Positions 60,404 through 60,553 of a stretch of 64,000 nt of DNA are shown here, piece after piece. Origin of the DNA: Escherichia coli (GTDB lineage Bacteria > Pseudomonadota > Gammaproteobacteria > Enterobacterales > Enterobacteriaceae). The stretch lies in assembly GCF_030013595.1 (NCBI RefSeq), contig NZ_CP122768.1; one strand, 5' to 3'. The position numbers and the translations under genes were made by a program. The first letter of the stretch is position 1. Each line of letters begins with the position of its first letter. The notes beneath the pieces are model-generated. The model was not told the DNA's origin. It saw only the letters and a list, made by a program, of their open reading frames with translations, and did no database searches.

Positions 60404-60440
60404 ATAAAAAAGCCCCCGGAAGGTGATCTTCCGGGGGCTT
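60404..60440 (-). terminator. his attenuator (leader terminator hairpin + U-run)
   Basis: Minus-strand agcccccggaagatcaccttccgggggct followed by ttttttat; lies between hisL and hisG. Confidence 0.9.
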
Positions 60441-60502
60441 TCTCATGCGTTCATGCACCACTGGAAGATCTGAATGTCTTCCAGCACACATCGCCTGAAA
60501 GA

Positions 60503-60553
60503 CTAGTCAGGATGATGGTGATGATGGTGGTGTTTAAATTGAACGCGTGTCAT
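60503..60553 (-). CDS. hisL: his operon leader peptide
   Basis: Minus-strand atgacacgcgttcaatttaaacaccaccatcatcaccatcatcctgactag = MTRVQFKHHHHHHHPD*, seven consecutive His codons; too short for the ORF track. Confidence 0.95.
   Translation of the reverse strand: MTRVQFKHHHHHHHPD

Follow-up and report, generated by a model that had tools for sequence, protein, structure and literature searches.

The histidine operon attenuator in a 64-kb window of the Escherichia coli chromosome: leader anatomy, alternative pairings and conservation

The his operon and its leader region

The stretch of DNA analysed here (the window, 64,000 nt) is part of the E. coli chromosome, and its minus strand carries eight consecutive ORFs that correspond to hisGDCBHAFI (Table 1). 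HisG, D, C, B, H, A, F and I all gave NCBIfam equivalog matches above the curated cut-off, and hisG to hisB are also annotated in an identical genome. Upstream of the hisG start codon (ATG at 60357) we found a match to the Rfam family RF00514 (His_leader), whose consensus structure contains three hairpins; it scored 131.6 bits (gathering score 49, E = 1.3e-22). The match extends over the full model, lies on the same strand and before the first his gene, and ends 46 nt ahead of the hisG ATG. Positions 60404-60553 begin and end exactly with the 3' end of this match and the ATG of hisL. Many complete E. coli genomes share 501 nt around the leader with the window at 100% identity, and there RefSeq places 'His leader region', 'hisL: his operon leader peptide' and 'hisG'. 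An initial sequence-only reading of the window had described a canonical and intact his attenuation control region, which agrees with the full-length RF00514 match, with the complete identity to annotated hisL and with the presence of hisGDCBHAFI downstream, and which is further backed by the mutually exclusive and conserved terminator and antiterminator pairings described below. The same reading had considered the element as one that escapes annotation, and this view had to be abandoned because RefSeq/PGAP annotates both hisL and the 'His leader region' in E. coli genomes. The element is, therefore, the E. coli hisL attenuator, intact, already known and already annotated.

The 150 bases of the leader were found in 5423 of the 5426 complete E. 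coli genomes, being at least 80% covered in 5422 of them, with an identity of at least 99% in 5085. Far more variable in E. coli than the leader is the stretch that precedes the his promoter (about 60640-60800); at a query coverage of at least 80%, the 501-nt query that includes this upstream DNA was recovered from 4209 genomes vs 5422 for the 150-nt leader.

Table 1. Positions in the window of the his operon, its leader peptide gene, the pairing segments of the leader RNA and the probable promoter elements
Feature	Position	Strand	Remarks
hisGDCBHAFI	53324..60357	-	Eight consecutive ORFs
Rfam RF00514 His_leader match	60404..60527	-	131.6 bits; model positions 1-126 of 126
U6 run of the intrinsic terminator	60406..60411	-	TTT invariant in 106 leaders among the matches listed
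Segment F (CUUCCGGGGGCUUU)	60409..60422	-	Terminator 3' arm
Segment E (AAAGCCCCCGGAAGAUC)	60425..60441	-	Terminator 5' arm plus three of the five loop bases
Segment D (GAUCUUCCAG)	60461..60470	-	Partner is C (terminating state) or E (antiterminator)
Segment C (CUGGAAGAC)	60476..60484	-	Partner is B or D
Segment B (GUCUUUCAGGCGAUGUGUG)	60485..60503	-	3' part pairs with A, 5' part with C
Segment A (CACCAUCAUCCUGA)	60507..60520	-	Pairs with B when ribosome-free (Rfam consensus, MFE fold)
Seven consecutive His codons (regulatory codons)	60512..60532	-	1 match in the window, 0 expected
hisL leader peptide gene	60503..60553	-	16 codons and a stop codon, MTRVQFKHHHHHHHPD; identical E. coli records carry it as hisL
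Probable transcription start	60584	-	A of a conserved CA
Probable -10 hexamer, TAGGTT	60592..60597	-	Suggested by conservation
Probable -35 hexamer of the his promoter, TTGCTT	60616..60621	-	18-nt spacer to the -10 hexamer

The hisL gene, read on the minus strand from 60553 to 60503, opens with the codons ATG ACA CGC GTT CAA TTT AAA, continues with CAC CAC CAT CAT CAC CAT CAT and closes with CCT GAC TAG, its translation being MTRVQFKHHHHHHHPD followed by the stop. The seven consecutive His codons that had been claimed for the leader peptide are thus indeed found in the minus-strand reading of 60532..60512. This run occurs a single time in the 64-kb window and was absent from 100 dinucleotide-preserving shuffles; hence, the locus has a short leader ORF (16 codons) with codons for the amino acid made by the operon, seven of them His.

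Some variation in hisL was observed in other genomes. E. coli 14EC017 (NZ_CP024134.1; L122:1478-1530) carries a 9-nt in-frame deletion that leaves four His codons, not seven, as well as an Arg-to-His change at codon 3, and at this locus PGAP annotated the His leader region but not hisL. An in-frame upstream ATG that would add 9-10 codons to hisL (MNKHS...) is present in Citrobacter, Enterobacter, Lelliottia, Cedecea and Pantoea (loci L011, L068, L079, L055 and L033 among others). The counterpart of this extension in the window is AATAAACATTCA (60564-60575, minus strand), which is out of frame and located in the 5' untranslated part of the leader, and this stretch is probably conserved as RNA or as promoter-proximal sequence rather than as coding sequence.

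The promoter elements listed in Table 1 were located by aligning 107 orthologous upstream regions among the matches listed. Positions T1, A2 and T6 of the TAGGTT hexamer (TAnnnT) and the CA at 60585-60584 are conserved in at least 90% of these regions, and TTGC (60621..60618) in at least 70-90% of them. The putative -10 hexamer agrees with the hisLp promoter described in PMC10989985, and a transcript that started at A 60584 would reach a length of 180 nt at position 60405, just past the U-run, 180 nt being the length quoted for the his leader RNA (PMC10989985). A consensus promoter and terminator scan of positions 60200-61000 did not call any his promoter upstream of hisL, which is explained by the weakness of the -35 hexamer, matching TTGACA at three of its six positions. 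As judged from the sequence, such a weak -35 would fit the control by ppGpp through the -10 and discriminator region of the his promoter that is summarised in PMC10989985.

Several other features were noticed in the window. On the plus strand (60809-61338) and divergent from hisL, two small ORFs (92 and 84 aa) overlap each other and correspond to the yefM-yoeB toxin-antitoxin pair in the annotation of an identical E. coli genome, and yeeZ and yeeY lie beyond them. A match to the enterobacterial sRNA family STnc240 (RF02074; 63266-63340, plus strand; 68.2 bits vs a gathering score of 55) ends in a hairpin followed by a U-run. JUMPstart RNA motifs, a type of motif that precedes polysaccharide gene clusters, are located at 13965-14003 and 40062-40100 (plus strand, 57 and 60 bits), and would presumably be in keeping with the neighbourhood of his in E. 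coli, which includes the clusters for colanic acid and O-antigen. On the minus strand, naRNA4 (RF02564) gave six tandem-like matches, which we take to be probable REP-type repeats and which fall into two groups (28448-28606 and 33132-33491); an algC RNA motif (28693-28742, plus strand, 78 bits) lies beside the first group.

Two mutually exclusive sets of pairings and their conservation

The leader RNA can be divided into six segments (A to F), which pair in two mutually exclusive registers, i.e. B:C plus D:E on the one hand, and A:B plus C:D plus E:F on the other. The terminator hairpin formed by E and F, AAAGCCCCCGGAAG-AUCAC-CUUCCGGGGGCUUU (60441..60409, minus strand), has 14 bp, a 5-nt loop and a stability of -26.9 kcal/mol, and the first three U of the U6 run also close its stem. 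The distance from the stop codon of hisL to the G+C-rich part of the stem is 64 nt, or 61 nt when the three basal A-U pairs are counted, which bears out the earlier description of a G+C-rich hairpin plus U-run about 60 nt downstream on the minus strand. Hairpin and U-run (60441..60406) end 49 nt ahead of the hisG start, and consequently an intrinsic terminator with a 14-bp stem and U6 lies between the leader ORF and the first structural gene. The consensus scan mentioned above did not call this terminator either, probably because the A-U/G-U extension of the stem consumes the U-run; the same scan called a weak 5-bp hairpin inside hisG (60233-60217). The leader as a whole (161 nt) folds at -68.4 kcal/mol with a z-score of -8.1, and none of 200 shuffled sequences folded as well. 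Regarding the other helices, B:C joins GUCUUUCAG (60503..60495) to CUGGAAGAC (60484..60476) by 9 bp (-10.3 kcal/mol), C:D comprises 8 bp (-9.9 kcal/mol), and D:E joins GAUCUUCC (60470..60463) to GGAAGAUC (60432..60425), the latter being the 3' half of segment E, by 8 bp plus inner pairs, the whole D:E domain with its inner pairs amounting to -16.7 kcal/mol.

A scan for His5-Pro-Asp-stop was carried out with one genome per species and yielded at least 120 loci, those listed belonging to Enterobacterales, Vibrionaceae, Aeromonas and Pasteurellaceae. All 120 loci listed are the ends of short ORFs, and their His runs comprise 5-10 codons, with 10 codons at locus L103, five being the number that the pattern itself required. 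The hisG start lies 126-220 nt past the leader stop in 109 of the 111 listed loci with enough flanking DNA; at the other two the flanking DNA ends at 204 and 182 nt, too short for the detection of hisG. A hairpin followed by a U-run was present in each of the 110 leaders analysed among the matches listed, with a median stability of -25.7 kcal/mol. Two metagenome-assembled genomes contained two contigs each with a his leader (L042/L043 and L060/L061). In the first of them, a Pantoea genome, hisG was confirmed behind both leaders; in the second, hisG could be tested behind L060 only, since L061 ends 42 nt past the leader stop. These paired leaders suggest that each bin holds more than one strain, and not that the operon is duplicated.

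When 106 distinct leaders, taken from the matches listed in other Gammaproteobacteria, were aligned with MAFFT, the conserved blocks coincided exactly with segments B to F, and conservation was lowest in the part of the leader that separates D from E. In these 106 leaders the terminating structure was paired at 95.7%, vs 35-56% when the partners were slid against each other, and 11 of its pairs had changed on both sides, including two of the E:F helix (columns 175/203 and 179/199; CG in 60 leaders and UA in 42 at columns 179/199). The antiterminating structure was paired at 95.9%, vs 41-64% with slid partners, and six of its pairs had changed on both sides. The helices between A and B were paired in 87-98% of the alignment cells and D:E in 93.8% across the 106 leaders, with three D:E pairs changed on both sides. 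At columns 113/189 and 114/188 (GC:49, GU:14, AU:13, UA:5), covariation links the terminator loop to the positions immediately 5' of D, and because the terminator does not constrain its own loop, this covariation supports D:E specifically. All these covariation counts are modest, most paired columns being invariant and the sequences phylogenetically related.

Order of synthesis and the choice between the two structures

Folding of positions 60400-60560 had been proposed as a way of revealing mutually exclusive terminator and antiterminator pairings. This expectation held in part: the full-length RNA adopted the terminator conformation only (A:B, C:D and E:F), with the antiterminator absent, whereas the exclusive pairings appeared in transcripts that end before F. 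When the full-length RNA was folded with a 30-nt ribosome mask placed at codons 8-14 and at codon 17 (the stop), C:D plus E:F still formed with the ribosome at any His codon or at the stop, and no antiterminator was obtained. With the ribosome on the His run, the terminator state of the full-length RNA reached -51.2 kcal/mol vs -30.4 kcal/mol for an enforced B:C plus D:E, i.e. it was 20.8 kcal/mol more stable. Since the terminator is about 21 kcal/mol ahead at equilibrium, the switch must be decided while the RNA is being made, that is, kinetically. MFE folding of the full-length RNA was, therefore, rejected as a test for attenuators, because attenuation is co-transcriptional and such a test would discard a true attenuator.

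We then considered the transcript cut at 60423, just before F. With the A site of the ribosome on His codon 10 or 12, the MFE structure of this RNA was B:C plus D:E, and without ribosome it was A:B plus C:D, the G+C-rich core of E remaining unpaired and free for F. Hence, the antiterminator of the stalled-ribosome transcript takes up the terminator's 5' arm and thereby excludes the terminator. When the ribosome stood at the stop codon, shorter transcripts formed C:D, and at 60423 D:E was thermodynamically preferred, which implies that termination at high histidine rests on C:D forming first. The formation of C:D first, followed by F within a few nucleotides, would be a kinetic assumption of the model. 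As a model of the high-histidine state, the pre-F transcript was also folded to equilibrium with a ribosome placed at the stop, and this was discarded, as it gave D:E together with implausible pairings across the ribosome.

The order of synthesis was further explored with a greedy co-transcriptional folding model in which the transcript grows by 2 nt per step, the ribosome masks all of the RNA up to its leading edge, and formed helices are locked once they have at least 4 pairs and, counted with whatever they enclose, reach -6 kcal/mol or better. For the window, this model predicted an E:F formation of 0.77 for the ribosome-free leader, 0.00 with the ribosome stalled in the middle of the His run and 1.00 with the ribosome at the stop codon, and in the stalled state 69% of E was paired upstream. 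The full logic (terminate, read through, terminate) was reproduced by 79 of the 110 real leaders listed (72%; 74-79 across thresholds). After dinucleotide shuffling of the spacer, which in the window is the 62 nt between the stop codon and E, it was reproduced by 18 of 150 sequences for the window (12%) and by 31 of 330 for the family (9%). In the stalled state the terminator was absent in 108 of the 110 real leaders listed vs 39% of the shuffles, and the 'free' state was failed by 25-28 of the 110 real leaders. The model is a heuristic, and its output would be weak evidence for any one sequence and persuasive only across the family. On this model-based footing, the placement of the codons would select between antiterminator and terminator in the window and in 72% of the 110 listed leaders.

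The his leader as a ribosome-mediated attenuator

Taken together, these results leave us practically certain that the locus is a ribosome-mediated transcription attenuator of the histidine operon. What is established here comprises the anatomy of the leader, the two sets of pairings together with their conservation, and the fact that the choice is kinetic. The coupling between transcription and translation, like the physiological response, would follow from established knowledge; the sequence is identical to that of E. coli, the species in which the system has been studied, and the rise of read-through on shortage of tRNA(His), as well as synchronisation by pausing, would rest on the published work on E. 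coli and Salmonella his (PMC10989985, PMC1183508).

According to this mechanism, transcription would start about 30 nt ahead of hisL, and a ribosome would translate the 16 codons while the polymerase is still in the leader. When His-tRNA(His) is plentiful, the ribosome would pass the seven His codons up to the stop and cover A and B, C:D would form once D has been made, and E would stay free to form with F the 14-bp hairpin followed by the U-run, so that transcription would terminate before hisG. When charged tRNA(His) is scarce, the ribosome would stall on the His run and cover A but not B; B:C would then form, the free D would take E before F is made, and with D:E in place no terminator would arise and the polymerase would read into hisGDCBHAFI. 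A leader that is not translated would form A:B, C:D and E:F, and transcription would also end there.

All features of the window that were tested match those of E. coli K-12 and Salmonella enterica hisL (RF00514; EcoCyc hisL), including the peptide MTRVQFKHHHHHHHPD, the seven His codons, segments A to F, the 14-bp/5-nt terminator with its U-run, the position before hisG and the probable 180-nt length of the RNA, and no difference from them was detected. PMC10989985 describes the same model (AB/CD/EF vs BC/DE), with a 16-residue peptide, seven His codons and a hairpin of 14 bp with a 5-nt loop. The attenuator shares with E. coli trpL the principle of a peptide with regulatory codons, a choice between antiterminator and terminator that is made by the ribosome, and a terminator before the first gene (PMC1183508). 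It differs in having six segments, seven regulatory codons and no repressor, whereas trp has four segments (1-4), two Trp codons and a repressor. Only his has an extra hairpin, C:D, between the A:B hairpin and the terminator, to which a lower basal read-through and a higher sensitivity than in trp have been attributed (PMC1183508).

Histidine supply is likewise sensed for his genes by T-box riboswitches of Gram-positive bacteria and by HisR. T-boxes also choose between terminator and antiterminator (PMC9413887), but they bind uncharged tRNA directly and without a leader peptide, and HisR is a DNA-binding repressor; T-box families gave no match at the Rfam gathering score anywhere in the window. 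A resemblance of the his leader to tRNA-His is cited in PMC10989985. The leader was accordingly considered as a tRNA-like element, which was discarded since ARAGORN found no tRNA or tmRNA in 60300-60700, a result with which a looser resemblance to tRNA remains compatible.

Whether the leader does more than switch in cis deserves some consideration, either through a protein of the DnaA type that modulates D:E vs E:F or through a leader RNA or HisL peptide acting in trans; we regard such an additional role as improbable, and nothing in the sequence analysis points to DnaA or to a function in trans. In the first of these proposals, the 'DnaA-dependent riboswitch' of PMC10989985, attenuation requires DnaA, which by binding to 'rDnaA boxes' of the leader RNA would stop the ribosome ahead of the His codons and make D:E less favourable; this layer would add to the ribosome switch rather than replace it. 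PMC10989985 reports evidence from genetics and RNA immunoprecipitation in E. coli, and the sequence analysed here contains the boxes described, but each of them has two mismatches to TTWTNCACA. Such 9-mers, with at most two mismatches, occur 1147 times in the window vs 1107 +/- 32 expected (about one per 56 bp), so that roughly four of them in a leader of about 200 nt are what chance would provide, and by this window-wide count the leader shows no excess of DnaA boxes. Moreover, boxes 3 and 4 are 'reverse' boxes, for which the RNA would carry the complement and not the box, box 3 falls in the poorly conserved stretch between D and E, the authors of PMC10989985 report no binding of DnaA in vitro, and the RNA-only model already explains the conserved pairings without DnaA. 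We consequently give an involvement of DnaA at this leader only a small chance.

An additional function in trans, whether of the HisL peptide or of the 180-nt RNA released at the terminator, is still less probable. The strong hairpin and U-run give the terminated leader an end like that of an sRNA, the HHHHHPD ending of the peptide is conserved (the search pattern itself demanded it), and PMC7968998 and bioRxiv 10.1101/864512 offer a precedent in the Sinorhizobium trp attenuator, with its RNA rnTrpL and its peptide peTrpL. Against this, hisL was met only in a list of known leader peptides in the literature searched on hisL, Hfq, sRNAs and attenuators, and the switch in cis fully accounts for the conservation, the conserved segments being exactly the pairing segments. 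A third reading, i.e. a chance short ORF beside an ordinary terminator or insulator without any sensing, has as its sole point that full-length equilibrium folding shows the terminator alone, and it can be dismissed as refuted by the comparative data, given a His run that is unique in the window and missing from the shuffles, an order of ORF, hairpin and hisG that recurs in 109 of the 111 listed loci from several bacterial families, two structures conserved with compensatory changes and an Rfam E-value of 1e-22.

The ribosome-mediated attenuator thus stands as the reading of this locus, and its study has consequences for the search for similar elements. MFE folding of the full-length RNA would wrongly have refuted a genuine attenuator, the terminator being about 21 kcal/mol more stable, and the failure of the consensus scan to call either the true 14-bp attenuator hairpin or the his promoter is a limitation to be borne in mind for other candidates. 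Attenuator candidates elsewhere should be examined with transcripts that stop short of the 3' terminator arm, with ribosome masks and with comparative counts of pairs. The his attenuator is among the founding examples of transcription attenuation, and the copy analysed here, which is identical to that of thousands of E. coli genomes, serves as a positive control that a regulatory leader is recognisable from raw sequence.
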